Positions 4,331 through 52,936 of a stretch of DNA of 64,000 nucleotides are shown here, piece by piece. This DNA comes from Myxococcota bacterium. GTDB taxonomy: Bacteria > Myxococcota_A > Polyangia > Nannocystales > Nannocystaceae. Location of the stretch: assembly GCA_039028615.1 (NCBI GenBank), contig JBCCHT010000051.1:28959-92958 (forward strand). The letters run 5' to 3'. The notes below the pieces were generated by a model. It ran no database searches and was not told the DNA's origin. It saw only the letters and a program-made list of their open reading frames with translations. The position numbers were made by a program, and so were the translations under genes. How positions within the stretch are numbered: the stretch's first letter is position 1; the number at the start of each line of letters is the position of its first letter.

Positions 4331-4351
4331 CAAAGCAGAGCCCACACCGAC

Positions 4352-4686: not shown

Positions 4687-5418
4687 GTGTCCGATCTCCC
4701 CGTGGATGCCCGCGCAAGCACCGAGTCACGCCCAAAGCCGCAGGGCGGCGTGCAGCGGTGGGTGGTTTGTCTCTGCGTCGGCATCGTCATCCTGAGCCTG
4801 ATCGGCATCGTCGGCGGTGGCTTCCTGTGGGCCGATGCCCGGCTGCAGCAGTGGGCCGAGACCACCGCCGAGCGCCGTATCCAACGGCGCCTCCCGCAGG
4901 CCGACCGCGTCGACGTGAGCCTCGGCTCCGACTCGGTTCTGTTGGGCCTACTGCTGGATCACGAGGTCCCCGGCGTGCACGTGCACATCGATCGCGTCCA
5001 CCACTTCGGGTGGGAGCTGAGCGACCTGCGCTTGGATGCCGAGGGCATCGCCTTCGATCGAGATGCGTTGCTCGACGAGTATCGGCTGGTGATTACGGGC
5101 ATCGACTCGGCCTCCATGGCGTACTCCATTCCCGTCGATGAGCTCGCCGAGGTCGTGGGGCGGCCGATCACGGTCGCCGATGACCGACTGTGGACGACCG
5201 AGGGAGCCACGCGGCTGACACTGCGGCCGGTCATCAAGGCGGGGTGGCTCGTGCTCGAGCGCTCTGGCAAGGAAGACGGGCCGCACCTGTACTACCCGTT
5301 GCCGATGGAGGGTTCGATGCCCTGCGCTCCGCGGATCGACCTCGAGGCCGACCGGCTGACGGTGTCGTGCGGGCTCGACTCCCCGCATCTGGACTTGCCC
5401 GAGCTCGCGCTGGGCTAA
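4687..5418 (+). CDS. Membrane-anchored protein, DUF2993/LmeA-like
   Basis: N-terminal TM helix (WVVCLCVGIVILSLIGIVGGGFLW), then AETTAERRI...VDVSLGSDSVLLGLLLDHEVPGVHVHI, a DUF2993-like pattern. Confidence 0.6.
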   Translation: MSDLPVDARASTESRPKPQGGVQRWVVCLCVGIVILSLIGIVGGGFLWADARLQQWAETTAERRIQRRLPQADRVDVSLGSDSVLLGLLLDHEVPGVHVHIDRVHHFGWELSDLRLDAEGIAFDRDALLDEYRLVITGIDSASMAYSIPVDELAEVVGRPITVADDRLWTTEGATRLTLRPVIKAGWLVLERSGKEDGPHLYYPLPMEGSMPCAPRIDLEADRLTVSCGLDSPHLDLPELALG

Positions 5419-30615: not shown

Positions 30616-33462
30616 GTGAAAGCCGACCTCATCGAAGTTCTGGCCTGTCCGGCCTGCCGTGGTCCGTTGACGACGACCGACGCAGTCGACGGCCGCATCG
30701 TGAACGGCATCTTGCGTTGCGAGGCATGCGGCACGGCCACCCCGGTCGCGCACGGGTTCCCGCTCTTCGAGCACACCCGACTCGACGATGGCCGCACCGA
30801 CGTGACCTGGGTCGAGTCGGCCGCCAGCAAGTGGTTCCAAGATCGCGGCACCTACGAGGAGTTCCTACGCAAGAAGGCCGAGCGCAAGACCTACGACGCC
30901 TACGCGATGTTCCAGCCCTTCAACGAGTCGCTCCGCGCCCTGCTCGCGGTGATCGAGCCGATTCGGGCCCAGCTGTCGCCGGGCGACGTCATCCTCGACA
31001 CGTGGAGCCGCTCGGGCTGGCCCGGGGCCTGGGTCGCCTCGCTCTTCCCCGAGCAGCACGTGATCTCGCTGTGGGAAGGCGACGGCAACGTGCTCGGCTA
31101 CGCGGGCTTCGACTACTGGCTGGGCGAGGGCCAGCGCCGCGACAACTGGGACATCGTCTTCACCCACGCCAGCGATCCGCTGCCCTTTCGCACGGGGGCC
31201 TTCGCGCTGCTGCACGGCTACGAGTCGCTGCACCGCTATCGCCCGGGGATGTTCGTCTCCGAAGCACATCGGGTCACGGCCGACGATGGTGCCATCGTCT
31301 TCACCCACATCCACCTGACCAACAGCGAGCCCGACCCCTGGTTCGAGCGCGGCTGCATCCAGCGGCACGGCACGCTGTACCGCGGGCTCTTCGATCGGCT
31401 GCATGCCGGCCAGGATCGCAAGGCCCTGGTCTTTGGCGAGCGCACCCTGTTCGAGGCGGGCGAGTCGTTCACCTTCACCGACGCCGCCCAGACCGAAGAC
31501 TACAACGGCGCCATCGTGATCGGGCCCGCCGCGTGGGAAGGCCAGACCTTCCGCACCGAGCACGCCCAGCCCATCACTCGGGACTCGTTCCTCATCGTCA
31601 ACCCGCTCTTCGACCTCGACCTCGGCGGCGCGCAGGCGTCGTGGAGCTACGACGGCCGCGAAGGCCAGGTCGGGCACCTGCTCGAGCGACACCCCTGCTA
31701 CGAAGACCGCATCCGCTCCCTGAAGAGCGCCACCATGCACGGCTACCAGCCCGAGCTGGTCTACTTCGCCGCGCAGTCGTGGACCTTCGGGCAGATCGCC
31801 GACCGGCTCGGCGTCGACGAGTCCGAGCTGCTCGCCCAGGCCAAAGAGCTCGCCGAAAAAGAGATCCTCTGGCCGGCCACCGTCTCCCCGGCCATGGCTC
31901 GGCTGCAGCACTACTACGGCACCATCGAGGTCGCCGACCCGCAAGAGGGCTCGTTCGCCGCGCTGTGGGCCAAGCTCCCCGCGCTGTACGAAGAGCGGCC
32001 GATCATCGAGACCGAGGACGGCACCGAGTTCACCTGGGAGGTCGTGGAGCAGCTGGGCACCGCCGTCGCCTGCTGGCTGCTCGAGACCACCACGGTCGGC
32101 GACCGCGTGCTGCTGCACTGCCCCAACTGTCCCGAGGCCTATATCGTCATCTGGGCGTGCTGGCTGACGGGGCGCACCATCGTGCCCGTCGAGCCCGATC
32201 TTCCGCTCGAGGCGGTCAACGAGCTCATCGGTCGCACGAGCCCCGCGCTGGCCTTTTCCATGCAGGCCCTGTCGGTGCCGAGCTACCAGTTCGACAGCCT
32301 GTACGACGAAGAGCAGCCGAGCGAGCTGCCCACCTTCTCCGAAGGCATCGAGCCCTACCTCGAGGCGCCCGAGCCCGCGCTGCCCGAGGTCGACGGCACG
32401 GGCGACGCGGCCATCTTGTTCACGTCGGGGAGCACCGGTCGCCCCAAGGGCGTGCGGCTGAGCCACGCCGCGCTGACCTCCAGCGGCGCGGCCTTGGCCC
32501 GCCACTTCCAGTGGGTACCCGGCGACCGGCTCTACTCGGGCGGGGCCAGCTACTCGATGTCGGGCCTGCGCAACCCCGCGCTGGGTGCCCTGCATGCGGG
32601 CGCCACCATCGTGCTGCCCGAGGCCCAGGGCCCCATGAACCCGCTGCGCGCCTACGAGCTGGTGCGGCTGCAATCGGTCAGCATCGTGACCACCGTGCCC
32701 GCCCAGCTCAACGCCTGGATCGCCATGCGCGAGCGCCTCAAGGACCAGCCCCGGCCCGCCTCGCTGCGATCGATCGCCTACACCGGGCACGGCATCTCCG
32801 ACGCGGTGCGCGAAGAAGTCAGCCAGTGGCTCGAGGTCCCGGTGACCGGCTACTACGGGCTCACCGAGACCTGCGGCCTGTGTCTCGGCGACGAGGTCGG
32901 ACAGCGTGCCCAGGGCAACATCGGGGGGCCCGTCGCCGCCCTGGCCCAAGTGGTCGATCGCGACGGGGTGGTCGTGCCCGATGGCGAGCGCGGCGAGCTT
33001 CGGATCTGTAGCCCGCGCATCATGAGCGGCTATCTCGAGGCCGACACCGTGAGCACCGTGCGGCTCGAGCACGGCTGGCTCTACACCGGAGACGCCGCCA
33101 TTCGCCAAGCCGACGGCAGCGTCGAGCTGGTGGGGCGCTTCGACGACCAGATCAAAGACCGCTTCGGAGACACCGTGTTTCCCTCCGAGGTCGAAGGCGT
33201 GGCAGCCGAGCTGTCGGCCGTCGACGACTGCGCGTGCCTGGCCGTGCACGATGCCTCCGACGTCGCCTCGCTCGTCTTGTTCGTCGTCGCCCACGAAGGG
33301 GCCGACCGCGGCGAGATCGAGTCCGAGGTCCTGCGATCGGTCGATGCTCGGCTCGGCGCACGCAAGCGACCGGGCCGCATCGTGTTCTGCGAGTCGCTGC
33401 CGCGCAAGACCAGCGGCAAAGTCAACCGACAGGCCCTGCTTTCGCAGGCCGGGATGAAGTGA
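30616..33462 (+). CDS. Fusion of Trm112-like Zn domain, methyltransferase-like domain and AMP-binding (ANL) domain
   Basis: LACPACRG...LRCEACG...HGFPL (Trm112-like); VILDTWSRSG and LPFRTGAF (degenerate class I MTase); FTSGSTGRPKG, YGLTE, YTGD, LPRKTSGKV (ANL). GAAGGA RBS precedes GTG 30616. Confidence 0.85.
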   Translation: MKADLIEVLACPACRGPLTTTDAVDGRIVNGILRCEACGTATPVAHGFPLFEHTRLDDGRTDVTWVESAASKWFQDRGTYEEFLRKKAERKTYDAYAMFQPFNESLRALLAVIEPIRAQLSPGDVILDTWSRSGWPGAWVASLFPEQHVISLWEGDGNVLGYAGFDYWLGEGQRRDNWDIVFTHASDPLPFRTGAFALLHGYESLHRYRPGMFVSEAHRVTADDGAIVFTHIHLTNSEPDPWFERGCIQRHGTLYRGLFDRLHAGQDRKALVFGERTLFEAGESFTFTDAAQTEDYNGAIVIGPAAWEGQTFRTEHAQPITRDSFLIVNPLFDLDLGGAQASWSYDGREGQVGHLLERHPCYEDRIRSLKSATMHGYQPELVYFAAQSWTFGQIADRLGVDESELLAQAKELAEKEILWPATVSPAMARLQHYYGTIEVADPQEGSFAALWAKLPALYEERPIIETEDGTEFTWEVVEQLGTAVACWLLETTTVGDRVLLHCPNCPEAYIVIWACWLTGRTIVPVEPDLPLEAVNELIGRTSPALAFSMQALSVPSYQFDSLYDEEQPSELPTFSEGIEPYLEAPEPALPEVDGTGDAAILFTSGSTGRPKGVRLSHAALTSSGAALARHFQWVPGDRLYSGGASYSMSGLRNPALGALHAGATIVLPEAQGPMNPLRAYELVRLQSVSIVTTVPAQLNAWIAMRERLKDQPRPASLRSIAYTGHGISDAVREEVSQWLEVPVTGYYGLTETCGLCLGDEVGQRAQGNIGGPVAALAQVVDRDGVVVPDGERGELRICSPRIMSGYLEADTVSTVRLEHGWLYTGDAAIRQADGSVELVGRFDDQIKDRFGDTVFPSEVEGVAAELSAVDDCACLAVHDASDVASLVLFVVAHEGADRGEIESEVLRSVDARLGARKRPGRIVFCESLPRKTSGKVNRQALLSQAGMK

Positions 33463-35291
33463 ACGACGTGACGACCTTCCATCAATACGCGTCGGCTCGG
33501 CCGCGCAAGCAAGAGTTCCTCGACGGTGACAACGCGATCACCTACGGGGCCCTGACCGAGCAGCTCGGCAAGACCATCGCCTACCTGCAAAAGCAGGGCC
33601 TCCAATCGGGCGATCGCATCGTCATCGCCAGCGACGACAGCTCCGCCTTCGCCTCGCTGTTCTTCGCCATGGTCGACATGGGCGTCGCGGTGGTGCTCGG
33701 CGACCCCGGCATGACGCCGGCCGAGCTCGCCCGCCTGGTCGCCCTGCTCTCGCCGGCCGGCATCATCATGGACGACGCGCTCATCAAGCGCCTCGGGGCC
33801 AGCAACCACGACCTGCGGCTGTGCCTGTCCATCAAGGCCAAGGCCAAGGGCGGCGGCCTGCTCGGCAAGCTGCTGGGGAAGAAGCGAGCCAAGGCCGCGC
33901 CCGCCAGCACCTACCCGGCCGTGCTCGATGGCCTCGACGCCGTCACCCCCGACGGCGGCAGCGATGACGACGTCGCGTTCATCGTGATGACCTCGGGCTC
34001 CACCTCGCAGCCCAAGGCCGTGCCCGGCACGCGCAAGGCTCTATTCGCCCACCTCGACACGCTCACCAAGCAGTTCGGCTACGACGACGGCAGCCGCATC
34101 ATGAACCTGCTGCCGCTGTCGCACGTGGACGGGATCATCCAGGGCCCCGCGCTCGCCTGCCGCACGGGCGGCACCTGGGTACGGCCCTTCCCCTTCACCG
34201 TGCAGAACATCGAGCCGATGCTGCACGGCATCTACAGCAAGCGGGTCACCCACTTCATCGGCGTCCCCACCATCCTCTCGCTCATCCACCGCATGTCCAC
34301 GAACCTCGAGGACAGCTTCGCCACCGACGACTTCAAGTTCGTGGTGTCGGCGGCGGGCAAGCTCGAGGTCGAGCTGTGGCAGGGCTTCGAGACCACCTTC
34401 AAGACCCGCGTCTGCAACCTCTTCGGGCTCTCCGAGACGGTCACCGGGGGTCTGTTCGCCGGGCCCGGCGACGACTCCCGCCGCTACGGCACCATCGGCA
34501 AGCCCACCGACTGCGAGGCGCGGATCATCGACGAGCAAGGCAACGACGTCGCCGACGGGGGGACCGGCGAGCTGTTGCTGCGCGGCGACAACGTCTTCGG
34601 CGGCTACATCTCCGACGATCCCAACGTCAACGACGGCCTGTTCATCGACGGCTGGCTGCGCACGGGCGACTTGGTCCACCGCGACGCCGATGGCTTCTAC
34701 GTCATCGACGGTCGCCTCAAGAACGTGGTCATCACGGGCGGCGAGAACATCTACCCCGAGGAGATCACCGAGGTACTCAACGGCCACCCGGGCGTGGGCG
34801 CGGCCACCTGCTTCGGCCTGCCCCACGGCGAGTGGGGCGAGATCCTCGTCGCCCTGGTCCAGCGCACCGACGCCTCGCTCGCGGAAAACGACCTCATCGG
34901 CTGGGCCCGCGAGCGGCTGAGTGCCTACAAGGTGCCCAAGGAGATCGCCTTCACCGGGGAGCTGCCCCTGGGCCCCTCGGGCAAGGTCCGCATGAAGGAG
35001 GCCAAGAAGATCTTCGAGGAGCTCCGTGGCGGCGACGCGGGAGCCAGCGGCAACGTCGACGAGCGCGTCATCGCCATCGCGGCCTCCACTTTCAAGCAGC
35101 CCAAGGATTCCCTGGGTGCGCGCTCGGGCCCGCACAACACCCCGGGCTGGGACTCGCTGGCGCACATCAGCTTCGTCGTCGCCCTCGAGGCCGCGTTCTC
35201 CATCAAGATCGCCACCGGTGAAATCATGGCGCTCCAGAGCCTGGGCGACGCCGTCAACACCGTGAGCAGTCACGTCGACAAACGGGTATGA
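33459..35291 (+). CDS. AMP-binding (acyl-AMP ligase) enzyme with C-terminal acyl carrier protein
   Basis: MTSGSTSQPK, FGLSE, GWLRTGD, GGENIYPEEI, PSGKV; ACP motif GWDSLAHISFVVALEAAF. GTGA overlap with the previous gene. Confidence 0.9.
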   Translation: MNDVTTFHQYASARPRKQEFLDGDNAITYGALTEQLGKTIAYLQKQGLQSGDRIVIASDDSSAFASLFFAMVDMGVAVVLGDPGMTPAELARLVALLSPAGIIMDDALIKRLGASNHDLRLCLSIKAKAKGGGLLGKLLGKKRAKAAPASTYPAVLDGLDAVTPDGGSDDDVAFIVMTSGSTSQPKAVPGTRKALFAHLDTLTKQFGYDDGSRIMNLLPLSHVDGIIQGPALACRTGGTWVRPFPFTVQNIEPMLHGIYSKRVTHFIGVPTILSLIHRMSTNLEDSFATDDFKFVVSAAGKLEVELWQGFETTFKTRVCNLFGLSETVTGGLFAGPGDDSRRYGTIGKPTDCEARIIDEQGNDVADGGTGELLLRGDNVFGGYISDDPNVNDGLFIDGWLRTGDLVHRDADGFYVIDGRLKNVVITGGENIYPEEITEVLNGHPGVGAATCFGLPHGEWGEILVALVQRTDASLAENDLIGWARERLSAYKVPKEIAFTGELPLGPSGKVRMKEAKKIFEELRGGDAGASGNVDERVIAIAASTFKQPKDSLGARSGPHNTPGWDSLAHISFVVALEAAFSIKIATGEIMALQSLGDAVNTVSSHVDKRV

Positions 35292-36280
35292 ACAGCCGGG
35301 TCCTGGTCTTGTTGGTCGCGCTGACCTCCGCCTACGTGCTGGCGGGGGTCTACACCGCCTATGCGCTGGTGCAGTCGGCCTACCAGGTGCCCAACCACGA
35401 GCGCTCGTACTCCGACTTCATCTTCGCGTGGGACTGGTGGAAGCGCTCCGATCCCGAAGCCCTATACGAAGACACCGACGTCGTCGCCTACGTCTCGTCC
35501 GTGGGCGGCCGCGCCCTATCGCCCCACGAAGTCGAAGAGGTCAGCAAGTGGCTCGTGGTCGAAGAGGACGTCGGCGGCCGCAAAGTCGCCGCCATCGGCC
35601 GCTTCCGACAGCCTCACCTGTTTCACTACTCGCCCTTCTTCGCCGCCAACGAGGACGGGGGCCGCATCGTCTTCATCACCGAGCGCTCGCTCATGGGCAT
35701 CTGGGACTCCGAGTCCCGACGCCGCGACCGACTCAAGGCGGTGTCGTTCCTCTTCCGCGGCTACATCGAGCAGATGTGGCCCTCCGGTCTGCAGTTCGAC
35801 ACCCTCGGCGACCTGCGCCGCGCCAACGAGGCGCTCAAAGACGAGAGCCGCGCCAACCCCTTCCGGCGGGACTTCAAGGTCGTCGACGGCGAGAAGGTCG
35901 ACTTCATGCTGCAGCAGCGCATCGACACCGACGGCCTCGACGGCCTCGAGTTCGATGACTTCCCTGCCGACATCCTCGAGACGGTTCACCGCTTCGTCGA
36001 GCAGGGCAACACCGTCTGGATCGTCTCCATCGCCCGCTCGCAGACCTTCGAGCCGCTCTACGCCGAGCGCATGGCCAAGACGCGCGACGCCATCTCGGAG
36101 CTGGCCGCCGACATCGACGGCATCGAGCACCTGTACTTCCCCGCCCTGCACGAGCGCTACTACCGAGACCACGCCCACATGAATGCGGCCGGCTCGGCGC
36201 TCTTCCACGAGTGGCTCACCGCGCAGCTCGACGCCCATGACGCGGGGCAGCCCCTGCCCGGCACGAGGGTCGCGCCATGA
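35288..36280 (+). CDS. Membrane-anchored DltD/AlgJ-like SGNH-type acyltransferase (putative)
   Basis: N-terminal TM; AYVSSVG (possible block I Ser); C-terminal YRDHAHMNAAGS (DxxH); ATGA-coupled between the ACP gene and the MBOAT. Confidence 0.7.
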   Translation: MNSRVLVLLVALTSAYVLAGVYTAYALVQSAYQVPNHERSYSDFIFAWDWWKRSDPEALYEDTDVVAYVSSVGGRALSPHEVEEVSKWLVVEEDVGGRKVAAIGRFRQPHLFHYSPFFAANEDGGRIVFITERSLMGIWDSESRRRDRLKAVSFLFRGYIEQMWPSGLQFDTLGDLRRANEALKDESRANPFRRDFKVVDGEKVDFMLQQRIDTDGLDGLEFDDFPADILETVHRFVEQGNTVWIVSIARSQTFEPLYAERMAKTRDAISELAADIDGIEHLYFPALHERYYRDHAHMNAAGSALFHEWLTAQLDAHDAGQPLPGTRVAP

Positions 36281-37404
36281 ACCCGTTGCAGTGGATCCAC
36301 CTGGCCATCGCCTTCGGCCTGGTCGCCCTGTTCTGGATCGTCCCCAAGAAGGCGCGCCTGTTCGTGCTCGCGGGCGCGGGCATGGCCGGCATGGCCTACC
36401 TCGACTGGCGCTCGCTCCTCGTGCTCGTCGCCTCGAGCCTCGCCGTCTTCGCCCTCACCCGTCGGGGAGGCAAGGCGGGCTACGCCGCCGCCATCGCCAC
36501 CTGCTGCGTCACCCTGCTCGGCTACCGCGCCTGGCAGGTGGCCGTCGCCGCCGACACCAGTACCTTCGTACTGCTGGGCTGCGCCTTCTACCTGCTGCGC
36601 CTGGCCCACTACGCCATCGATTCCGCCGCGGGCAAGGTCCGCGACCACGGCCTGGCCATCTTCATCGCCTACTGCTTCTTCTGGCCCACCCTCACCGTGG
36701 GTCCCGTCAACCGCTTCGACGCCTTCATGCGCGACGACCAGCGACGGCGCTGGGACCCGCGGCTGTTCATCTCCGGCCTCGAGCGGATCCTCTTCGGCTA
36801 CTTCAAGCTGGTGGTGCTGGCCAACTACCTGCTGGCCACCAAGTTCCTGCCCTTCGCTCAGAACTTGGGCGGGGACGACAATGCGCTGGGGGCATGGCTA
36901 CTCAACATGCACTACGGCCTCGACCTGTACTTCCGCTTCGGGGCCTTCTCCGACATTGCCATCGGGCTGTCGCGGCTGGTGGGGGTGCGGGTCATGGAGA
37001 ACTTCCGCTGGCCGTACTTTCAGGCCAACATCGCGGAGTTTTGGCGGAGCTGGCACATCTCGGTGTCGGGGTGGTGTCGGGACTATGTGTTCTCGCCCAT
37101 CGCGTTCAAGCTGCGGCAGCCGGCGGCGGGTGTGGTCGCCTCGATGCTCATCCTGGGGATCTGGCATGAGCTGTCGTTGCGGTACGTGTTATGGGGGCTG
37201 TTTCATGGGGTGGGGATCGTGGTTCATCGGCTCTGGCTGGCGTATGTGGGGCCTCGGATTGGGGGGGTGCCGGGGTGGATTCGGTATGGGGTCGGGATGG
37301 TGGTTACGTTCAACTTTGTGGTGTTGGGGTACTCGCTGACTCGGACGGATAGTCTGGCGGAGGCGGGGCGGGTCTTTGTGACGATCTTGACGTTGGGAGG
37401 GTAG
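36277..37404 (+). CDS. MBOAT-family O-acyltransferase (DltB/AlgI-like)
   Basis: FWPTLTVGPV, FGAFSDIAIG, ENFRWPY...EFWRSWHISVSGWCRDYVF, GIWHE (catalytic His). Confidence 0.93.
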   Translation: MNPLQWIHLAIAFGLVALFWIVPKKARLFVLAGAGMAGMAYLDWRSLLVLVASSLAVFALTRRGGKAGYAAAIATCCVTLLGYRAWQVAVAADTSTFVLLGCAFYLLRLAHYAIDSAAGKVRDHGLAIFIAYCFFWPTLTVGPVNRFDAFMRDDQRRRWDPRLFISGLERILFGYFKLVVLANYLLATKFLPFAQNLGGDDNALGAWLLNMHYGLDLYFRFGAFSDIAIGLSRLVGVRVMENFRWPYFQANIAEFWRSWHISVSGWCRDYVFSPIAFKLRQPAAGVVASMLILGIWHELSLRYVLWGLFHGVGIVVHRLWLAYVGPRIGGVPGWIRYGVGMVVTFNFVVLGYSLTRTDSLAEAGRVFVTILTLGG

Positions 37405-37408
37405 GGGG

Positions 37409-37546
37409 ATGTTTGCTTGGTTGAATGAGCGTATTGGGCTTACGGGGGCGGTTGTTGTGGCGCCGCTGGTTTATGCGATTGTTGTGTTGGTGATCTTGAT
37501 GTTTGTGGATTTGCCGACGGAGACGTTTCGGTATCTGGATATCTAG
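37409..37546 (+). CDS. 45-aa DltX-like single-TM peptide (not in ORF track)
   Basis: MFAWLNERIGLTGAVVVAPLVYAIVVLVILMFVDLPTETFRYLDI*. Starts 4 nt after the MBOAT stop, with GGAGG upstream. One TM helix plus a C-terminal F-x-Y-x-x-hydrophobic hexapeptide. Confidence 0.8.
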   Translation: MFAWLNERIGLTGAVVVAPLVYAIVVLVILMFVDLPTETFRYLDI

Positions 37547-37605
37547 GTCCGAGGTGATTCTGCTTCCTCGAGGGTGGGGATTGCTTCGAGTTGGTTCGGC
37601 GGAGG

Positions 37606-37780
37606 GTTCGAACGGGGGGCTCGCCTGTTGACGGCTGGATCCCTCCCCGGACGTGCTCGGCGGCCGTGAGGTTCGAGTGTTTCGCGACGGCAGTCGGCGG
37701 CCGCCTCCGCGCGACCGGGCCCCCTCCATCCTACGCGGCTTCGCTTCAGCCCTCCCCGGGACTCGGCCTCCCGGGCGAAC
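37606..37780 (+). repeat. ~175-bp dispersed repeat element, followed by a partial 3' copy at about 37815-37857
   Basis: gttcgaacggggggctcgcctgttgacggctggatccctccccggacgtgctcggcggccgt...cctccatcctacgcggcttcgcttcagccctcccc. Confidence 0.9.
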
Positions 37781-38042
37781 GTGGAGTGGGGCCTGCTCGA
37801 TCGTACCTTGGCTTGCTTCGCCTTGGCCCTCCCCGTGACTCGGTCTTCCGGTCGAACGGGGAGTGCCTCCTGCTCGATCACACGCTTGCTTTGCTTCGCG
37901 ATGGATGAGGGCTAGAGTTTCCACGGGGTCGATGTTGGGGCGAGCGGGCGGCGTGGGTTTTGCTCGGGCGGTGCCTGGTTTGCTTGGAGGGGGAGCGGTG
38001 GGGTCGCCTGTTCGTGGCGTGATCTTCTTCGGTTGCTGGTCC

Positions 38043-39257
38043 ATGATGCCGGAGGTGCCGGAGCGGAAGTCGTGTCCAGAGAAACGAGCCGGGAGGGGCT
38101 CGGTGTCGGTGGCTGCGGCGTTGGTGCTCGTTCTGGTCGGAAGCGGGTGTGGAGACTCGGGTCGGAGTCCGACGACCGAGGCCATCTCCTCGCCCGCACC
38201 CGAACCCAAGGCCGCGACGGCGGATTGCTCGAACGAGCGGTTGATCGAGTCGGGGGAGTACGGGTCCGTCGTGCTGCCCGACCGAGTGTGGTCGCCGTTG
38301 GTCTTCGGAGTCTCGAGCCAGATCGGTGCGTGTGCGGTCCCTCGGTTCGAGCTCTACGACCTGAAGACGCGGGAATTGATCGCGCGGCACGACCTTCCGC
38401 CGCTGCAGACGCCCGATGGTCTGAAGCGATGGGGCATGCAGACGGTCGCGGCGGGGGGACACGTGAAGTTCCTCGCCGGGAACAACGACGCGCTCTTCTT
38501 TCGTCTGACCGACGGCAAGGCCACGGTGGACACCCGGGTGCTGCGCTCGGAGGCCAAGGAGTACGCGTCGCGTTTGTTCACGAGCTCGGGGTCACACCTT
38601 CACGTCACGCCGGACACGGCCTACATCGACCTCAACGATGGCGAGCGTGTTGCGCTCGACCTGGAGTCGCGCGAGGTCACCCTCACCGAGGTCGGACCGC
38701 CCACGGAGCAGGAGCTGGCCGAGCGCCACGGATGCCCCGACTACACCGACACGATCGACAGATTCAAGGGCCGCGGCAGTCGACGTCCCTACGCGGGCGG
38801 CACCCAGGGCATCACGAAGCTACGGCCCGAGCGCATCCACTTCGACGACACCGACCGAGGAACGACGCTGGTCCTGCACGCTGCGACCGAGCGCGGCCGC
38901 CATCCGAAAGACGACCCGCCGGTCCTCATGGCGTCGGCCGACTCGTTTTTCTCGCCGACGATCTTCGTGCCCACCCGATGCGAGCCACCGGGCGTAGACC
39001 GAAAACTCCCCGCCCCCTTGCTCGTGTCGCATGGTTCCAGCCTCGACACGAAGACGGCGACGAGTCGGCTCTCCCGTGTGGCCGACGACGGCGCGACGGT
39101 CTGGACGCTGGACACACCGTTTCCTTTCGTCCATGGCTCCAAGGTTCGGTACTACGGAAGCACCCTATTCGTGTTCGATGTCGTCTCGAAGCACGCGCTG
39201 TGGATCGACATCGATGAGGGCACACTCGTCGCGGAAGCGAAGATGGTGACGCGATGA
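38043..39257 (+). CDS. Hypothetical lipoprotein, paralog 1 of a tandem pair
   Basis: VGSGC lipobox; shares WxPLVF, RFELYDLKTR, PAPLLVSH, WTxDTPF and ALWID with the next gene. Confidence 0.8.
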   Translation: MMPEVPERKSCPEKRAGRGSVSVAAALVLVLVGSGCGDSGRSPTTEAISSPAPEPKAATADCSNERLIESGEYGSVVLPDRVWSPLVFGVSSQIGACAVPRFELYDLKTRELIARHDLPPLQTPDGLKRWGMQTVAAGGHVKFLAGNNDALFFRLTDGKATVDTRVLRSEAKEYASRLFTSSGSHLHVTPDTAYIDLNDGERVALDLESREVTLTEVGPPTEQELAERHGCPDYTDTIDRFKGRGSRRPYAGGTQGITKLRPERIHFDDTDRGTTLVLHAATERGRHPKDDPPVLMASADSFFSPTIFVPTRCEPPGVDRKLPAPLLVSHGSSLDTKTATSRLSRVADDGATVWTLDTPFPFVHGSKVRYYGSTLFVFDVVSKHALWIDIDEGTLVAEAKMVTR

Positions 39258-40444
39258 CCCATACGGACTCGACCGAATCGAAGCCCCAGCTCCTGCCGAT
39301 GACGGGCCGATTGCATCACGCCGCACTCGTGCTCGCGCTGACACTCGGCGGTGGGTGCAATTCTTCGTCCCCGCGCGCGAACGCGGAAACGGCCGAGGCC
39401 TGCTCGGACGCACCATTGCTCGAGACGGGAACGCACGATGGAGCCCAGATACCGAAGCACCCGTGGGACCCGCTGGTCTTCGCGCTCATGGGAACGCCGC
39501 CAGGGTGCTCCGCTCAACGCTTCGAGCTGTACGATCTAAAGACCCGCACGCTCATCGCCCGCCACGAGTTCTCGCCAGTCCCCGATCCTCTGCGCGGGCA
39601 CACGCCGTGGGGTTTCACCGGATTCGAAGGCGGGCACGCGGTCCTCCACATCAAGCCCGCGAAGCGCGAGCGCACCGACGTGGTGTTGCTGCGCCTCGAG
39701 GACGGCGCCCAGGCGCTCGACACTCGGACCTTGCGAACCGAGGCCACCGCGTATCGAGATCGGTTCTTCACCGACATCATCCGGTACGTCCACCCGACCC
39801 CGGAGACCATCTACATCGAGCTCAACGACGCCAGCACCGTCGCCCTCGCTCCCACCACCACCACGCTGACCTCGACCACGGACCAACCGCCGAACACGGT
39901 CGAGATCGCCCGACGAGCCGGCTGTGGTCGAGGCTACGGCGGCCACATCGACCGCTTCTCGGGACCCGACGGCCGCAGTCGCTCCGCCGGAGGAACCACC
40001 GGCATCCAGCTCCGCCCCGAAGAGATCTACTTCGAAGAGAACAAAAAGAAAGTCCGTCTCGCCATCTACGAAACCGGAGAGCGATACGTCCCACCCGAAC
40101 AGCTCCCCGTGGTGATGAAGACCGAAGCCGTCTTCTTCGACCCCAAGATCTTCAAACCCGCCGAATGTGACTCAGGAGGCCCCGTCAACGGCCACCCCGC
40201 CCCCTTGCTCGTATCCCATCAGACCAATCTCGACCCCAAAGCCGCCACCGCCAAACTCTCGAGGATCACCACCGACGGCAAGACCCTGTGGACGATCGAC
40301 ACCCCCTTCCAACTCGAGGACCCGGTCCAGGTCCGATGGTACGACTCCACCCTCTTCGCCTACCGCCAGTACAAAAACCTAGCCCTATGGATCGACCTCG
40401 ACCAAGGCAAACTCATCCAACAACTCGACCTCACGACCCGCTAG
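39254..40444 (+). CDS. Hypothetical lipoprotein, paralog 2 of a tandem pair
   Basis: LGGGC lipobox; ATGA overlap; collinear similarity to 38043-39257. Confidence 0.8.
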   Translation: MTHTDSTESKPQLLPMTGRLHHAALVLALTLGGGCNSSSPRANAETAEACSDAPLLETGTHDGAQIPKHPWDPLVFALMGTPPGCSAQRFELYDLKTRTLIARHEFSPVPDPLRGHTPWGFTGFEGGHAVLHIKPAKRERTDVVLLRLEDGAQALDTRTLRTEATAYRDRFFTDIIRYVHPTPETIYIELNDASTVALAPTTTTLTSTTDQPPNTVEIARRAGCGRGYGGHIDRFSGPDGRSRSAGGTTGIQLRPEEIYFEENKKKVRLAIYETGERYVPPEQLPVVMKTEAVFFDPKIFKPAECDSGGPVNGHPAPLLVSHQTNLDPKAATAKLSRITTDGKTLWTIDTPFQLEDPVQVRWYDSTLFAYRQYKNLALWIDLDQGKLIQQLDLTTR

Positions 40445-40533
40445 ACCCACCCCCCTCCAGGCGGCCCTGCTAGAAAATTCGCCGCCCTGACTCCAACCAA
40501 GTCACCCCAACGCAAAAGCAGAGCCTGGCAACC

Positions 40534-40640
40534 GTTCGAACGCGAGACCGAGTCACGCGGAGGGCAGAAGCGAAGCCGCGTAGGACGGAGGGCCCTCGGT
40601 CGCGCCGAGGCGAGTCAACAGGCGAACCCTCCGTTCGAAA
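40534..40640 (-). repeat. Internally deleted inverted copy of the repeat element
   Basis: gttcgaacgcgagaccgagtcacgcggagggcagaagcgaagccgcgtaggacggaggg...caacaggcgaaccctccgttcgaaa keeps both ends and lacks the centre. Confidence 0.85.
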
Positions 40641-40697
40641 ACTCGCCACTCTGACTCCAAGCAAGTCACCTCAACGCCAAAGCAGAGCATGACAATC

Positions 40698-40871
40698 GTT
40701 CGAACGGGAGACCGAGTCCCGGGGAGGGCTAAAGCGAAGCCGCGTAGGATGGAGGGGGCCCGGTCGCGCGGAGGCGCCCGTGTACAGCCGTCGCTAAACA
40801 CCCGAGTGAAACGGCCGCCGAGCACGTCCGGGGAGGGTTCCATCCGTCAACAGGCGAGCCGCCCGTTCGAA
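40698..40871 (-). repeat. ~175-bp dispersed repeat element, inverted copy
   Basis: gttcgaacgggagaccgagtcccggggagggctaaagcgaagccgcgtaggatggaggg...aaacaggcgagccgcccgttcgaa. Confidence 0.9.
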
Positions 40872-40905
40872 AACTCCCCAAGATCAACTCAAAGCACCCC
40901 CCCTC

Positions 40906-42114
40906 TCAAGCCACCTCCACCCGCACCAACGAAACAAGCCGAGCAATCGCCTCCTCGACCACCGCCGTCTTCGGATGCCTCACAATCGCATACCCCTCCC
41001 CTTCATAACTGCTCACCTTCGCCTGCCCCGGCTGCGGCAGCTTCGCCTCGACGACCAGATGCCCCAACTCCGCCTGCGCCTGCTCGATCCCATGCAGCCG
41101 CACCACCCGACGCCCTTGCCCCTGCCCCCGAAAGTACGCCGCCGCCACCGCATGAGTCCGCCGCGGCACCTCCCAGTGATCGAGGCAGACCAACTCCGCC
41201 CACCGCCGATACATATCCGTATCGTGCGCCCACCCATTGAGCGACACGATCTGCGCCCCCGGAGGCCGAGCCCCCACCTCGGAGATCGCCACACTCCCAT
41301 CCCGCCGCCGAAACCACTCCATGTGGCTCAACCCGGTATGCATCCCCAAGGCCCTCAGCGCAGCATGGGCAAACGGAGCAATCGCCTCGCTGTCCGCCGT
41401 ATGCTCCTCGCGAGGCAGGATCACCGTCCACTGGATCCACGGGTTTTCCAGCACGGTGAGCGGGCTCGGGTCGTAGCGCGTGTGTGAGTCCCAGATCGGC
41501 GTGCCGCGAATGCTGGCCGTTTCGAAGGACCGCTCTTGGCCCACCACGAACTCTTCGACCATCTCGGGCACGAACGAATCGAGCGCCCGGGCGAGGCCCG
41601 CTTCGCTGGTGATGCGATGAGTCCCCGCCGCGGCCGCGCCGTCGCGAGGTTTGACGATCAGCGGAAAGCCGACCTCGCGAGCAAAGGCCCAGACCTCGGG
41701 CGCAGAGCTGGTCCGCCGATGCCGAGCGCACGGCAGACCGGCCTGGCGCAGGGCGTCCTTCATCAGCGCCTTGTCGCGAAAGCACCGCGCGGCCGCTTCG
41801 CCCATCCCCTCGATGCCGAGCTGATCGCGAACCCGACCGAGCGGAACCTGAAGCTGCTCGAGCGAGCCCACGAGGCGATCGAGCCCCCCCATGTGCGTCC
41901 GCAGGGCGCGGGTCGCCTGGGCGAGCGCGGCGGGATCGAGGGCGTCCTTGACCTGGTAGTGACCGGCCAGTCGCGAGCGCAAGCGCGGCGGGAGCCTGTC
42001 GGCCGGGTCGACGCTCACCACCCCGACGTCGACCCCGGGCAAGCCCGCCACTGCGTCCACGAAACGCAAAGTGGCGTCCATGAAATAAGGAGCAACAAAG
42101 ACAACGCGGGGCAT
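40906..42114 (-). CDS. ATP-grasp domain protein
   Basis: FRDKALMKDALRQAGLP, GFPLIVKP, VEEFVVG, SHMEWF, SEVGARPPG. Confidence 0.9.
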   Translation of the reverse strand: MPRVVFVAPYFMDATLRFVDAVAGLPGVDVGVVSVDPADRLPPRLRSRLAGHYQVKDALDPAALAQATRALRTHMGGLDRLVGSLEQLQVPLGRVRDQLGIEGMGEAAARCFRDKALMKDALRQAGLPCARHRRTSSAPEVWAFAREVGFPLIVKPRDGAAAAGTHRITSEAGLARALDSFVPEMVEEFVVGQERSFETASIRGTPIWDSHTRYDPSPLTVLENPWIQWTVILPREEHTADSEAIAPFAHAALRALGMHTGLSHMEWFRRRDGSVAISEVGARPPGAQIVSLNGWAHDTDMYRRWAELVCLDHWEVPRRTHAVAAAYFRGQGQGRRVVRLHGIEQAQAELGHLVVEAKLPQPGQAKVSSYEGEGYAIVRHPKTAVVEEAIARLVSLVRVEVA

Positions 42115-42130
42115 CGGGGCGCGGAGCCTA

Positions 42131-45061
42131 TCAGGGCGCCGGCCGGTCTCCGAGCGCAGTGACCCATTGTCGGAACTCGGTCACCGAAGGGGCCCCCTTT
42201 TCGCCCACGAAGGGCTCGATCTCGGGCACGAGGGCGAGCGCGGCGTCGCGCTTTCCGACCTCGGCGAGGGCGCGGGCGAGCAGGAAGTCGCGATCCGCCC
42301 GCTGGACGGGCACGCCGAGCTTCTCGTCGGCGATCGGCTGGAGCCGGGCGAGCGCGTCTTCGGCCTTGCCCTCCTGGAGCTCGAGCCGCGCCAGCTCGAT
42401 CTCGGCGGCAATGCTCGATCCGGGAGCTTCGAGCTCGGCGCCCTTTTGCACGACCCAGCCGAGGACCTCGCGAGCCTCCGCGTCCCGCCCCACACGGAGC
42501 AGGCTGGTGCCAAAATGCAGGGCCTTGCGCAGGGTATAGGAGTCGCCGATGTCCTCGATCGCGAACTCGTCGAAGGCCCGATCGTAGTAGGCCATCGCAT
42601 CTTCGTAGCGCCGAAGGTGATAGTAGACCTCGGCCAGGTTCATGCTGACCATGCCCAGCGCGGGGTGATCGGCATCGAGCGCTTCGGTGAGGTGGCGATG
42701 GGACAGCTCGAACTGCGCGGCGGCCTCGTCGTAGCGCTTCATGTTCTTGAGCGCGAGGCCGACGTTGTTGCGCGCCTGGGCGGTCTGGGGGTGGGCCTCG
42801 CCCAGGTGCCGGGTGCGGATCTCCAAGGCGCGCTGGTAGGTCTCGAGCGCGGCGTCCCAGTCGAACTTCGCCAGTCGGGCCGACGCCATCGAGTTGAGCA
42901 CTCGCGCCACGCGAAGCCCCTCGGGGCCGGCATGACGCTCGGCGAGGGTCAGCGCCCGCCCATAGAGCGCGAGCGCTCGATCGTAGTTGTGGTGCCGCAG
43001 CTCGATCTGACCCCGGGCGTAGTCGAGCTCGCCATCGAGGGCTTCGGCGCGGGCGGGGTCTTGCCGCCAGATCCGTTCGATCATGGCGCGAGCGTCCTCG
43101 GCCCGCGTCTGCGCCTCGTCGTAGCGCCGCAGGACATAGCCGAGCAGGTCCACCAGCTGCACCACGCTGCTGGCGGCCAGCGCGTCGTCGCCGGCTCCGA
43201 GCGCCCGTCGCCAGGCCTCCTCCAGGTCGACGACCGCGGCTTCGTACTCGCCCATGCGCATGTGCAGGCCGGCTCGATCCTGCAAGGCACGAGCGATGAG
43301 CGGCGCGTAGTCGGTGGCGATCGCGGCGTGGGTGGCTTCTTTGACCAGGGCCAACCCGGCGTCGTAGCGACCGGAGCGGCCGTGGGCCTGCGCCCGCGCG
43401 AGGTCGCTCTCCACCCGCTGCACCCGCGCCCGCACGGCCGGATCGCTGGGCGGCGGCACCTGAGCCCGCAGGGCCTTGAGGTCCTCGCAGGGCGCCAGCG
43501 GCCGTAGCTCATCGATGGCCTGGACCGCGTGCCGCCGCACCTCGGGCTCGGCGAGCACGAGCACGCCGATGAGTGCATCCAGCTCCTGCCGTCGCTCGTC
43601 GAGACACGCCCCGCGCAGGTCGAGCGCATGACCGGATTGATCGCCCCGGTGGTAGGCCACACACGCATCGCGGTGGCTCCGTGACCACTGTTGCGCGTAC
43701 TCGTCGATGCGGCGCACGGCCAGGGTCGCGGTGTCTTCGGCGTACTGGGTCTGCCCTCGCGACAGCGCGTGGTGGACCTCGGCGCGGGCCTCGGTGGACC
43801 ACAGCTCCTCCATGGCGATCTCTCCCCCTTCGCAGGGATCGGACGGGGCGGAGAGCACGGAGCTGGCCACCGACCCCGCGACGATCGAGGCCGCGCCGAC
43901 GACCCCGAGGGCGATGAGCCCCCGCCGCTTGCGACGAGGTCCGTAGGCCAAGCCCTCGACCAAGGCAGCCATGGAGGGCCAGCGATCCTTGGGCTCGAAC
44001 GACAGGCCGCGCATCACGACGTTGCGCAGCCAACGAGGCACGCTCGCGTCGCTGGTGACCTCGGTGAAGTTGCCGTCGAGGATGTTGGTGCTCAGCTCGG
44101 CGAAGGTCGTACCGCCGAAGGGGCGGACCCCCCACAGGGCCTCGAACAGCGCGACGCAGAAGCTGAACTGGTCGGAGGCGGCCGAGGTCTGTTCGCACAG
44201 GATCTGCTCGGGCGCCATATAGGCCGGGGTTCCCCGCAGTCCCTTGGTGCGCGAGACGGTGGCGTCGAGCAGACCGGACTCGATCACGAAGGGGCTGTCG
44301 GCGGGTCGCGAGCTCCGTCCCGTGTCCTGGCCGCTGGGGCGCGCCAGCCCGAAGTCGGTGACCCGCGGCCGCTCGTCGGCGCCGATCAGCACGTTGTCGG
44401 GCTTGATGTCGCTGTGAATGAGCCCGGCTTCATGCGCGGCGCCCAGGCCCCGACCGATGGCCTGGAACATCTCGAGGATCTTGGCCTGGTCGGGCTTGGC
44501 CCGCGCGAGCCACTGGGTGAGCGTGCCGCCCTCGACGAACTCCATCGAGATGAACACGCGGCCCTCGATCTCCCGCACTTGGTGCACGGTGATGACGTTG
44601 GGGTGAGACAGCCGGGCCATGGCCTGAGCCTCGCGCAGCAATCGTCGCTGCGCTCGCTCCTCGTCGTCCTCTTTGCTCGAGTGACGATCGTGCAGAGCCT
44701 TGAGCGCGACCTTGCGATCGAGGTCGGGGTCGTACGCGGCATACACCACGCCCATGCCCCCGCTGCCGATGAGCTCGAGGATGTAGTAGCGATCGACCCG
44801 CTCGCCCGGGTGCAGGCGCACCTTGGCGCGCATGGGCAGGCTCTCGTCGGCCAGGGTGTCGCTCTCGCTGACGCCGAGCTCGTCGAGCGAGACGTCGGTG
44901 GACCCGCCCGGGTGCTGGGTGGCGAAGATCCTCGCGAGCTCGGCCACCACGCGGCTGCACCCGTCGCAGTCGTCGAGGTGGGACTCGATGGCGCGACGCT
45001 CGGCGGGGTTGAGACCACCGCGACTGAACGCATTGAGCGCCTCGGGCTCGGGGCAAGCCAC
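42131..45061 (-). CDS. Ser/Thr protein kinase with N-terminal zf-HC2-like motif, TM and TPRs
   Basis: HLDDCDGC; IGSGGMGVV, HSDIKPDNV, DFGLA, GTPAYMAPE; LGEAHPQT-type TPRs. Confidence 0.93.
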   Translation of the reverse strand: MACPEPEALNAFSRGGLNPAERRAIESHLDDCDGCSRVVAELARIFATQHPGGSTDVSLDELGVSESDTLADESLPMRAKVRLHPGERVDRYYILELIGSGGMGVVYAAYDPDLDRKVALKALHDRHSSKEDDEERAQRRLLREAQAMARLSHPNVITVHQVREIEGRVFISMEFVEGGTLTQWLARAKPDQAKILEMFQAIGRGLGAAHEAGLIHSDIKPDNVLIGADERPRVTDFGLARPSGQDTGRSSRPADSPFVIESGLLDATVSRTKGLRGTPAYMAPEQILCEQTSAASDQFSFCVALFEALWGVRPFGGTTFAELSTNILDGNFTEVTSDASVPRWLRNVVMRGLSFEPKDRWPSMAALVEGLAYGPRRKRRGLIALGVVGAASIVAGSVASSVLSAPSDPCEGGEIAMEELWSTEARAEVHHALSRGQTQYAEDTATLAVRRIDEYAQQWSRSHRDACVAYHRGDQSGHALDLRGACLDERRQELDALIGVLVLAEPEVRRHAVQAIDELRPLAPCEDLKALRAQVPPPSDPAVRARVQRVESDLARAQAHGRSGRYDAGLALVKEATHAAIATDYAPLIARALQDRAGLHMRMGEYEAAVVDLEEAWRRALGAGDDALAASSVVQLVDLLGYVLRRYDEAQTRAEDARAMIERIWRQDPARAEALDGELDYARGQIELRHHNYDRALALYGRALTLAERHAGPEGLRVARVLNSMASARLAKFDWDAALETYQRALEIRTRHLGEAHPQTAQARNNVGLALKNMKRYDEAAAQFELSHRHLTEALDADHPALGMVSMNLAEVYYHLRRYEDAMAYYDRAFDEFAIEDIGDSYTLRKALHFGTSLLRVGRDAEAREVLGWVVQKGAELEAPGSSIAAEIELARLELQEGKAEDALARLQPIADEKLGVPVQRADRDFLLARALAEVGKRDAALALVPEIEPFVGEKGAPSVTEFRQWVTALGDRPAP

Positions 45062-51326: not shown

Positions 51327-52382
51327 TTGAACCTCATCCACTTGGGCTACGGCCCTCACTTCCAACGACAGTTCTCCGACCTCGATCGCCCCGAACTACG
51401 GCCCGCCCGTGTGATTCGTGAAGACCGGGGTCGCCTTCAGGTCGACGACGGCGAGGGCCCTCGCGCGGCCGAACCTCTCGGACGTCTCCGGCGCAAGGAT
51501 GGCCTCGACTGGCCCGCCGTCGGTGACTGGGTCGCCGTCGATCCGCTCGACGATGGACCGTGGCTCATCCATCACGTCCTGCCCCGAACCAGTGCCTTCA
51601 TTCGCGGGCGAGCGGGGCGACGCGACACCTCGCAGTGCGTCGCCGCCAACATCGACACCTTGTTCATCGCCATGGCCCTCGACGGCGACTTCAACCTCCG
51701 TCGACTCGAGCGCTACCTCGTGCTCTCGCGACGCAGCGGCGCCGAACCGGTCATCCTGCTGACCAAGGCCGATCGTTGCCTCGACCCGGACAGCGTCCGC
51801 GAGCAGACGAGGGCCGTCGCCACCCACGAGGCAATCCTCGTCCTGTGCACCCCCGAGCAGCGAGGCATCGACGCCCTGCAGCCCTATCTCGCCCAGGGTT
51901 CCACCATCGCCATCGTCGGCTCCTCTGGCGTCGGCAAGTCCACCCTCGTCAATCACCTCCTCGGCCAGACCACCATGGCCACCGCCGAGATCAGGGAACG
52001 CGACGAAAAAGGCCGCCACACCACCCGCCACCGCCAGCTCGTCTCCCTCCCCTCGGGCGCCTCCCTCATCGACACCCCCGGAATGCGCGAGCTGCAGATG
52101 TGGGGCGACGAACACGACGTCACCGCCGGCTTCGACGACATCGAACAGCTCGCCACCCAGTGTCGCTTCGGCGACTGTCAACACGACCGAGAACCCGGCT
52201 GCGCCGTCCAAGCCGCCCTCGAAGAAGGAACCCTCGACCCACCCCGCTTCGACAGCTTCACCAAACTCCGCACCGAAATGCGCCGCCACGCCGAACGCCA
52301 AGGCACCACCCACGAACGAAGACGCTACGAACGAGGCTTCAGCAAAATGATCAAACAAGCCAAACGCCTCAAACGCCGCTGA
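51327..52382 (+). CDS. rsgA: Ribosome small subunit-dependent GTPase A
   Basis: PAVGDWV, VAANID, LTKAD, GSSGVGKS, GRHTT, IDTPGMRE, CRFGDCQHDREPGC. Probable TTG start. Confidence 0.93.
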   Translation: MNLIHLGYGPHFQRQFSDLDRPELRPARVIREDRGRLQVDDGEGPRAAEPLGRLRRKDGLDWPAVGDWVAVDPLDDGPWLIHHVLPRTSAFIRGRAGRRDTSQCVAANIDTLFIAMALDGDFNLRRLERYLVLSRRSGAEPVILLTKADRCLDPDSVREQTRAVATHEAILVLCTPEQRGIDALQPYLAQGSTIAIVGSSGVGKSTLVNHLLGQTTMATAEIRERDEKGRHTTRHRQLVSLPSGASLIDTPGMRELQMWGDEHDVTAGFDDIEQLATQCRFGDCQHDREPGCAVQAALEEGTLDPPRFDSFTKLRTEMRRHAERQGTTHERRRYERGFSKMIKQAKRLKRR

Positions 52383-52446: not shown

Positions 52447-52560
52447 CGAAGCCCCAAAAGACCACCTCACCACCGTCCCCCGCCACCACTCCAACCCCAT
52501 CGAAGCACCAAAAGACCACCTCACCACCGTCCCCCGCCACCACCCCAACCCCATCGAAGC
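52447..52560. repeat. 54-bp tandem repeat, 2 copies
   Basis: cgaagc(c/a)ccaaaagaccacctcaccaccgtcccccgccaccac(t/c)ccaaccccat at 52447 and 52501. Confidence 0.9.
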
Positions 52561-52800
52561 CCACCGCCGCCCGCCGCATCGCCGTAACCACCGGCGAAGC
52601 CACCCGCCCAACCTCGAGGGGCCGCGCCGACGGGAGGGTCCCAAACCCCGACCGAGGACTTGAGGCGGGCAGAAAAACCACGCCCAACTCCATCCCCCAC
52701 GCCCGACCCGCAGGGCGGGGTTTGGGAGGGACCCGTCGACAGCAGGCCCCGGTCCCCGCAGCGGCCCCACTCTCCGAGCCCCTCCAGCAGACCCCTCGCC

Positions 52801-52907
52801 CAGCAGCCCGACAAACATCGAGCCCCTCAGCAGCCCGACAAACATCAAGCCCCTCAGCAGCCCGACAACATCGAGCCCCTCAGCAGCCCGACAAACACCG
52901 AGCCCTT
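52801..52907. repeat. 27-bp tandem repeat, 4 copies
   Basis: cagcagcccgacaaacatcgagcccct at 52801, 52828, 52855 (26 bp) and 52881; no spacers. Confidence 0.92.
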
Positions 52908-52936
52908 AGCACCCCCACGAGCCCAGCCGAGACCCC

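Follow-up and report, generated by a model that had tools for sequence, protein, structure and literature searches.

Dispersed hairpin repeats in a myxococcotal genome are flanked by halos in which one DNA strand is strongly enriched in G and T. We describe these halos in a 64,000-nt stretch of contig JBCCHT010000051.1 (positions 28,959 to 92,958; assembly GCA_039028615.1), hereafter the window, which is part of the 12.27-Mb genome (94 contigs) of a high-GC marine bacterium of the Nannocystaceae. The halo was confirmed to be real, large, polar with respect to the repeat and present genome-wide. It reaches to both sides of a repeat, decays with distance, is independent of gene direction, and affects four repeat families as well as both Y1-HUH genes of the genome. 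As to its cause, we infer, with somewhat less than even confidence, that the hairpin repeatedly leaves one strand single-stranded and that damage and gap-filling errors on that strand produce the halo, with a Y1-HUH enzyme as the preferred opener.

Polar skew around the repeats in the window

Strand asymmetry was measured as keto skew, (G+T-A-C)/N, in 200-nt windows for this stretch and in 500-nt windows genome-wide (standard deviation (SD) 0.07). Genes were those of a purpose-written codon-model caller (9353 genes), which misses short or AT-rich genes. The strand given for a copy is its G/T strand, and outside and inside denote the flanks away from and towards its inverted partner.

An earlier note on this DNA had placed a forward repeat and inverted copies in the middle of the window and had described strand skew beside them. 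Profile matches bear out the repeats: a family-A rod-hairpin copy lies at 37618-37773 (+), with a partial tail copy at 37815-37891, and is followed by a partial (40541-40621, -) and a full (40704-40860, -) inverted copy. The skew is there as well. It amounts to +0.42 to +0.48 at 37101-37600, -0.25 to -0.36 at 40001-40500 and -0.25 to -0.35 at 40801-41400. The first cluster of the window reaches +0.42 at 2901-3100 and -0.44 at 4501-4700, and the extremes of +0.48 and -0.44 compare with the SD of 0.07.

Silent sites carry the window skew, and the claim that the shift is mainly synonymous held for the MBOAT, ATP-grasp and second lipoprotein genes, all of which show marked shifts at four-fold degenerate sites. 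The outer G/T halo of the forward copy (36900-37617, +) comprises the last 130 codons of an MBOAT-family gene (36277-37404, +), a 45-codon open reading frame (ORF) and the spacer. The 3' third of the MBOAT gene has been rewritten, its four-fold sites passing from C59/G23 in the first 130 codons to C8/G62 in the last 130. Beyond the inverted copies, the ATP-grasp gene (40906-42114, -) passes from C39/G33 to C7/G62 towards its 3' end; the outer halo takes up its last 130-200 codons (40906 to about 41400). Two lipoprotein-like genes, paralogs with 42% identity, occupy the spacer between the repeats and show opposite shifts at opposite ends. The first (38043-39257, +) is G-shifted at its 5' end (C20/G47) and neutral at its 3' end (C32/G37). 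The second (39254-40444, +), also on the MBOAT strand, is neutral at its 5' end (C32/G35) and C/A-shifted at its 3' end (C53/G7, with A13/G9 in NNR codons), where it forms the inner halo of the inverted copies. The 45-codon hydrophobic ORF (37409-37546) lies directly 3' of the MBOAT gene and presumably resembles the small membrane partners of MBOAT operons.

The first cluster consists of three tandem forward family-A copies (3117-3771, +; individual copies at 3117-3275, 3352-3509 and 3626-3771) and, on the other strand (4092-4516, -), an inverted family-A remnant (4092-4169) and a full copy (4358-4516), beside which a short C/A flank extends to about 4700. Its outer halo lies in a Cys/Met pyridoxal phosphate (PLP)-enzyme gene (1904-3046, +), where four-fold sites pass from C49/G22 to C9/G59. 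A third halo, which the earlier note had not described, surrounds a single, apparently unrelated family-D rod-hairpin copy (52607-52751, -) and is polar on both sides. Its inner part is the C/A-shifted 3' end of the rsgA GTPase gene (51396-52382, +), whose last 130 codons stand at C58/G2 and, in NNR codons, A21/G5, and its outer part is the G/T-shifted 3' end of an MpaB/Lcp-domain gene (52937-54133, -). Short C/A-rich tandem repeats with 54-nt and 27-nt units flank this copy (52447-52930), and similar tandem flanks occur at other copies and beside one of the Y1-HUH genes (locus C13).

Contigs from a read run that cover 33000-37635, 37735-40747 and 40831-44000 reproduce the window halos letter for letter at an even depth of ~21-fold; this run may be the window's own source and hence is not independent of it. 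Because the letters are identical and the depth is even, an assembly artefact is ruled out as the source of the halo. Rfam at gathering thresholds gave no match within the window.

Polarity, reach and spectrum across the genome

Profiles started from skew peaks found 136 copies at 68 loci, in four families (A, 86 copies; B, 15; C, 20; D, 15). Among 188 contig ends, 29 have a copy no more than 900 nt away. Sixty-six of 138 raw skew peaks lie near a copy, and all 66 carry the sign of its orientation. At isolated loci, the G/T bias is present outside in 15/15 cases and inside in 14/15; a single copy therefore keeps one sign on both sides. In this the halo differs from break resection. The one-sign, two-sided shape excludes both break resection and fork direction, and a gap or a bubble fits it.

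In bacteria, strand skew is usually attributed to genome-wide effects of replication or transcription. Strand skew is also known from deamination gradients on single-stranded DNA (ssDNA), in mitochondria and at breaks and R-loops of eukaryotes, where C>T and A>G changes on the exposed strand give G+T skew. The halo shares the gain of C>T and A>G changes and the keto skew with these systems, but it spans only about 2 kb, changes sign over 1-3 kb from one inverted copy to the other and is independent of gene direction. Replichore skew was rejected because the sign flips between inverted copies 0.16-6.5 kb apart. Transcription-associated skew was rejected because co- and counter-oriented genes shift oppositely, as do the paralogs at 38043-39257 and 39254-40444. 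The earlier claim that the skew follows the element, and neither the gene nor the replichore, thus stands.

Gene direction also bears on an unlikely alternative, in which transcription through the hairpin produces R-loops; the displaced RNA-like (G/T) strand would then suffer damage without need of a nuclease. Consistent with this, 75 of 89 outermost copies follow a co-oriented gene, copies start a median of 124 nt after the stop codon (73 genes), and read-through would explain the inner halo. In addition, the relative G004 has strong halos and no Y1 gene was found in its genome, which is 88% complete. However, the outer flank is just as skewed when the outer gene points away (12/14, mean 0.23) as when it points in (69/75, mean 0.18), and a codon-level outer halo is present in 7/8 flanks where the outer gene points away. 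Convergent gene ends without an element also lack the halo: tails above +0.3 make up 1.2% of 3211 such ends, compared with 40% of 58 near elements. Among gene ends overall, 0.35% of 9038 controls reach +0.2, compared with 45% of co-oriented flanks. Skew of this kind is therefore rare at gene ends that lack an element, as the earlier note required.

We characterized the base changes by pooled codon ratios, taken near 128 copies and compared with background. Up to 400 nt outside, four-fold sites hold C 0.23-0.28 and G 0.60-0.62 (background C 0.51, G 0.39); in counter-oriented genes inside they hold C 0.74 and G 0.14. Silent C on the G/T strand is down 3-4-fold, replaced by T and G, and silent A is down 2-fold, from about 0.6 kb outside to 1-2 kb inside; even core genes have silent codon positions changed in this way. 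Co-oriented genes have an NNY T/C ratio of 0.71 (background 0.17), TTG/CTG of 0.72 (0.18), four-fold G/C of 2.23 (0.75) and NNR A/G of 0.09 (0.17), and opposite genes mirror the shift (NNR A/G 0.71, four-fold G/C 0.23). Non-coding flanks and amino-acid composition shift likewise. AGG/CGG barely moves (17/389, background 0.038), with 49 AGG codons expected under plain avoidance of C (P = 1e-7) and 24 under joint avoidance of C and A (P = 0.08). Plain C avoidance is therefore excluded. Avoidance of a CT cleavage site and an APOBEC-like TC context were also rejected, C loss being greatest in GC context and least in TC.

The skew decays smoothly, reaching zero about 650 nt outside and fading by 2 kb inside, and the cytosine loss as a whole spans about -0.6 to +1.5 kb. 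A weak reversal at 0.9-2.5 kb outside, not listed in the earlier note, affects 64/72 co-oriented and 27/41 counter-oriented flanks, with no matching rise of G>A in the pooled codon ratios. Halo strength was unrelated to profile score or tandem copy number at 47 family-A loci. The short motif alone (CCTGTT, 19-25 nt, CGTGCTC/CATGCTC) had no halo at the 10 of 104 sites that lie outside elements.

Comparison with orthologs shows the halo to be a derived state. Five ATP-grasp orthologs with no detected element have four-fold G of 0.42-0.64 and NNY T of 0.07-0.26, compared with 0.75 and 0.57 here, and rsgA orthologs have 0-3 NNR A compared with 21. In trpS, which lies beside one Y1-HUH gene, four-fold sites stand at C7/G58, compared with C41-48/G23-27 in 4/4 orthologs. 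C>G changes outnumber C>T against these orthologs, with 89 and 62 for trpS (pooled, 4 orthologs) and 18-39 and 11-16 per ortholog for ATP-grasp. The expectation that element-free orthologs would lack the skew was borne out insofar as it is absent or weaker in them; it did not hold for 2/16 ortholog tails (L013, L245), which are partly G-shifted with no detected element. Three results had been set beforehand as contrary to an element-linked halo, namely that it be common at element-free gene ends, fail to flip or be present in orthologs, and none of them occurred.

Among 72 other genomes, four carry family-B-like copies, and all four are congeners. The mean outer skew in relatives is +0.23 in G004 (11 copies), +0.11 in G002 (16) and +0.11 in G001 (5). 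Family-B-like copies also occur at 5/12 metagenome loci, with a clear halo at L115 and L120, a weaker one at L117 and none at two. One pair in G004 (L087:6669-7066) has a rare outward arrangement and a strong halo on one side only. Family D was not found in 58 other genomes searched. Literature searches within an open-access library turned up no report of such a halo.

The A-D repeats do not explain all skew in this genome. No A-D copy lies within about 1 kb of 72/138 raw skew peaks or of 32/60 of the strongest silent-site segments, and many of these raw peaks fall in low-complexity proteins or in foreign DNA. Silent-site skew also switches strongly, with no A-D copy, at G000:C11:152655-157013, C20:158085-162206 and C18:192572-193699; one of these switches lies at a tRNA-like gene and another surrounds an AT-richer insert. 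At G000:C18:17300-20400, a parS cluster beside rsmG has an inward G/T halo and no A-D match, and the orthologous rsmG/parS locus (L115:2300-4700) carries a family-B pair. The parS halo is either a fossil of an element since lost or an effect linked to parS. Other long palindromic repeats, perfect or nearly so, adjoin skew peaks near 130600 of G000:C3 (16 blast matches) and near 83200 of C28 (about 12), and these may represent more families.

Hairpin families and the Y1-HUH genes

Copies of all four families are 130-165-nt rods whose G/T strand begins with CCTG(T/C)T. The rod structure rests on covariation (compensatory pairs: 13 in C, 16 in B with relatives' copies included, 4 in A and 1 in D), since the folding z-score of a single copy was not significant (0.12). 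Asking which of the G/T and C/A strands folds better gave no consistent answer. In families A and B, unlike C and D, the C/A strand carries GTAG at the base of the stem. The G/T strands of 32/33 neighbouring opposite copies point inwards, and the spacers of inverted pairs span 0.16-6.5 kb, 25/32 of them with no called gene. Most copies (52/62) are nearer in sequence to their own inverted partner than to copies elsewhere, as local cut-and-copy would be expected to give.

These repeated intergenic palindromes, arranged in inverted doublets and arrays near gene 3' ends, behave like repetitive extragenic palindromes (REPs) and REPINs. They share with the REP/REPIN/BIME systems and their RAYT proteins (REP-associated tyrosine transposases) the post-stop hairpins, the inverted pairs, the tandem arrays and the local copying (PMC3333891). 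REP units bear a GTAG or CGTC tag, to which the basal GTAG of A and B may correspond. E. coli TnpA-REP is reported to cut ssDNA up- and downstream of the REP, over >400 nt and on the REP strand (PMC3333891), and such two-sided single-strand cutting has the geometry of the halo. In contrast, A-D units measure 130-165 nt and REPs 20-40 nt, there is no CT-site signal here, and the accessible part of that source describes no mutational halo.

Two Y1-HUH (RAYT-like) genes, at loci C13 and C8, were the only ones found in the genome. They encode proteins of about 300 aa that are 66% identical, with invariant HUH, WE and Tyr motifs; H66, H68 and Y126 are kept in 5/5 aligned proteins. The C13 protein matches PF01797 (Y1_Tnp) at 23.8 bits (cut-off 23), and a sequence search of solved structures gave no match. 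Both genes sit within an inward, two-sided G/T halo, and the four gene tails that flank them rank 1, 2, 6 and 21 of the 38 element-free halo tails among 9353 genes.

Both genes also lie between inverted repeats of 15-18 nt, with GGGGWSAS at C13, as in TIRtrons, in which a RAYT-like gene lies between long inverted repeats that have dispersed families (PMC3733652). In these systems, too, a RAYT-like gene lies between short inverted repeats (TIRtrons/TIRYT), and their dispersed terminal inverted repeat (TIR) families are, like A-D, moderately abundant, partly self-complementary and found in dimers and clusters (PMC3733652). Here, however, the dispersed repeats are unlike those beside the Y1 genes, and the accessible part of that source is silent on flank composition. 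A-D thus behave like REPINs or dispersed TIRs but differ from them in that no cognate RAYT (Y1) gene is flanked by A-D copies. The Y1 proteins share with TnpA-Y1 subclass 2.3, which is listed without REPs (PMC6006769, Table 1), a size of about 310-325 aa, the NHYH and WE motifs and the presence of >1 copy per genome. Their Tyr motif is YTLCNA, not YVDLNP as reported for that subclass (PMC6006769).

The link between these enzymes and the halo is indirect, and several observations weigh against it. Both proteins score below the cut-off of the curated RAYT model NF047646 (34.1 and 32.4 bits; cut-off 80), and by size and motifs they resemble the subclass 2.3 listed without REPs. No A-D profile match was found at 31 RAYT-like loci, the genome's own two included, and the short repeats beside the Y1 genes are unlike A-D and not dispersed. 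A two-sided halo is missing from all of 28 RAYT-like loci in other genomes; four have one on a single side. Among five congeners, two have partial RAYT matches, and these two have 0 and 1 partial hairpin matches, and the halos of G004 noted above occur with no Y1 gene found. Finally, E. coli K-12 REPs had no polar halo after control for convergence (131 REP-adjacent and 563 other tails, 61 stretches). A polar effect seen there in a first split (P = 0.008) vanished once convergent genes were controlled and was rejected. In E. coli lfhA (L108:8359-10071), the last 120 codons, by the rayT REP array, have four-fold G45/C9 compared with G115/C88, a single post-hoc case. A search for a Y2/IS91 transposase gave no match in the genome.

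Two other mobile systems were considered as sources of the repeats. That they are retrocopies of retron multicopy single-stranded DNA (msDNA), with the halo arising from msDNA or reverse transcriptase (RT) activity, is largely refuted and retains almost no probability. The genome does encode a single retron of myxobacterial type, and its msd, a rod of comparable length, also opens with CTGTT. RT-less msr-msd repeats, likewise long rod hairpins opening with CTGTT and in the same kind of bacterium, have been reported in Nannocystis exedens (Retron-Nex1; PMC6868368). However, a profile of 12 msr-msd regions matched only the retron locus, and the A-D profiles missed 30 retron upstream regions, so there is no match either way. 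No msr precedes the A-D repeats, the retron locus has neither a halo nor dispersed copies, and msDNA invasion would be expected to expose the opposite strand. This single retron (L001; G000:C16:159644-161311) has an intact msr-msd, RT orthologs in 43/72 related genomes and compensatory changes in its msd stem among congeners, and a WGR-like gene follows it (by eye). Near 232490 of G000:C8, 13 letters equal the conserved retron RNA/DNA overlap motif; they stand at the stop codon beside the inverted repeat that adjoins the second Y1 gene. As C4:30170 has a similar match, this is probably chance.

It is also very unlikely that the inverted pairs are what remains of an IS1182-type element carrying long subterminal hairpins and that the halo is a by-product of its transposase. 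One lineage has this structure: metagenome locus L111 holds a forward family-B copy, an IS1182 transposase and an inverted family-B copy within short terminal inverted repeats and a CTAG target duplication, and L113 has the same left end. In L111 (105-1950), 130-nt family-B hairpins lie about 55 nt inside both short terminal repeats. The inward arrangement of nearly all neighbouring opposite copies (32/33) is alike. However, there is no halo beside L111 or L113, five transposases with 59-60% identity share the terminal repeats but have no hairpins, and 30 IS1182 loci showed neither an A-D match nor the halo pattern. This genome holds only a sub-threshold fragment and no intact copy, the L111/L113 ends have no convincing match here, and CTAG stops next to copies are not enriched (7/73). 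An IS1182 element may explain how family B travels, but not the halo.

Cause and meaning of the halo

In the reading we favour, the repeats would be REPIN/TIR-like substrates that extrude as hairpins. A Y1-HUH enzyme of RAYT/TIRYT type, acting in trans and bound to the hairpin, would cut the C/A strand on both sides and leave the G/T strand as an unpaired template. Deamination of the exposed strand would then account for C>T and A>G, and C>G would come from bypass of the damaged C, for which DnaE2 is a plausible agent. Over long residence the silent sites would reach a new equilibrium, and the paired stem of the repeat would be spared.

Loss of C with weaker loss of A on one strand is the outcome expected of damage to an unpaired strand. 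The earlier interpretation, that the element may drive strand-asymmetric mutagenesis, for example through nicking or ssDNA exposure, is partly supported. The earlier note had proposed C>T and A>G as the spectrum, and both changes are seen, but the proposal is incomplete. A model of C>T plus A>G predicts a four-fold G/C ratio of 1.15-1.9, compared with the 2.23 observed, and thus under-predicts the gain of G; moreover, C>G, an addition to that note, is at least as frequent as C>T against orthologs. On this reading, damaged C would therefore also have to be bypassed to G. The genome has dnaE2, and imuB/imuC-dependent G:C>C:G changes are linked to the DnaE2 system in a report on Caulobacter (PMC3901139).

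The same spectrum bears on another explanation, in which nicks in the G/T strand lead again and again to its resynthesis from the hairpin, with poor proofreading or mismatch repair. G-T wobble errors place T opposite G and G opposite T, and fixing them would yield the same two transitions on the same strand; resynthesis would also explain the local copying of partners. It fails to account for C>G, which is at least as frequent as C>T, and we regard it as improbable.

A less remote alternative, to which we give roughly a one-in-several chance, is that, in place of extra mutation, weak selection or a strand bias in repair enriches one strand in G/T near the hairpin, for example as a signal for protein loading or tracking. 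It matches the codon ratios about equally well: a per-base model (C 0.3, A 0.5, G and T 1) gives nearly all of them, including the four-fold T/G ratio, which is unchanged (0.153 compared with 0.146). G-quadruplex-like motifs are more frequent on the G/T flank (0.23 per kb compared with 0.08 genome-wide, small numbers). Against damage on an exposed strand, CT and AG words are not specially depleted, and rare variants within the repeats show no excess of C>T. However, selection or repair would need to affect silent and non-coding positions in their hundreds, at 68 loci and whichever way the genes point, to decay smoothly with distance and to work against the host's codon preferences in trpS and rsgA. 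Neither enrichment nor depletion was seen for any specific word, and AGG/CGG falls below its prediction (P = 0.08).

A variant of the exposed-strand reading, which we hold to be doubtful, treats the hairpins as site- and strand-specific hypermutators and also as tiny abortive replication origins, with a bubble of roughly 1.2 kb exposing one fixed strand and sometimes sending short forks both ways. A bubble with short forks would explain both the strong, symmetric core and the weak origin-like tail, which is C-rich at 0.9-2.5 kb outside and G-rich to 2 kb inside. If this is true, the halos would be a sequence-only map of where, and for how long, a domesticated HUH nuclease acted in vivo.

Small repeats in this bacterium thus determine a 3-4-fold polar bias at kilobase scale, strong enough to reverse codon usage in trpS and rsgA. 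If the halo is mutational, it would be a new source of local variation in mutation rate and a confounder for scans of codon usage and horizontal transfer. It would also be a readable in vivo footprint of REP/TIR-associated HUH nucleases. Because the halo predicts the exposed strand, its place and its reach, the cellular activity of such nucleases would become testable.

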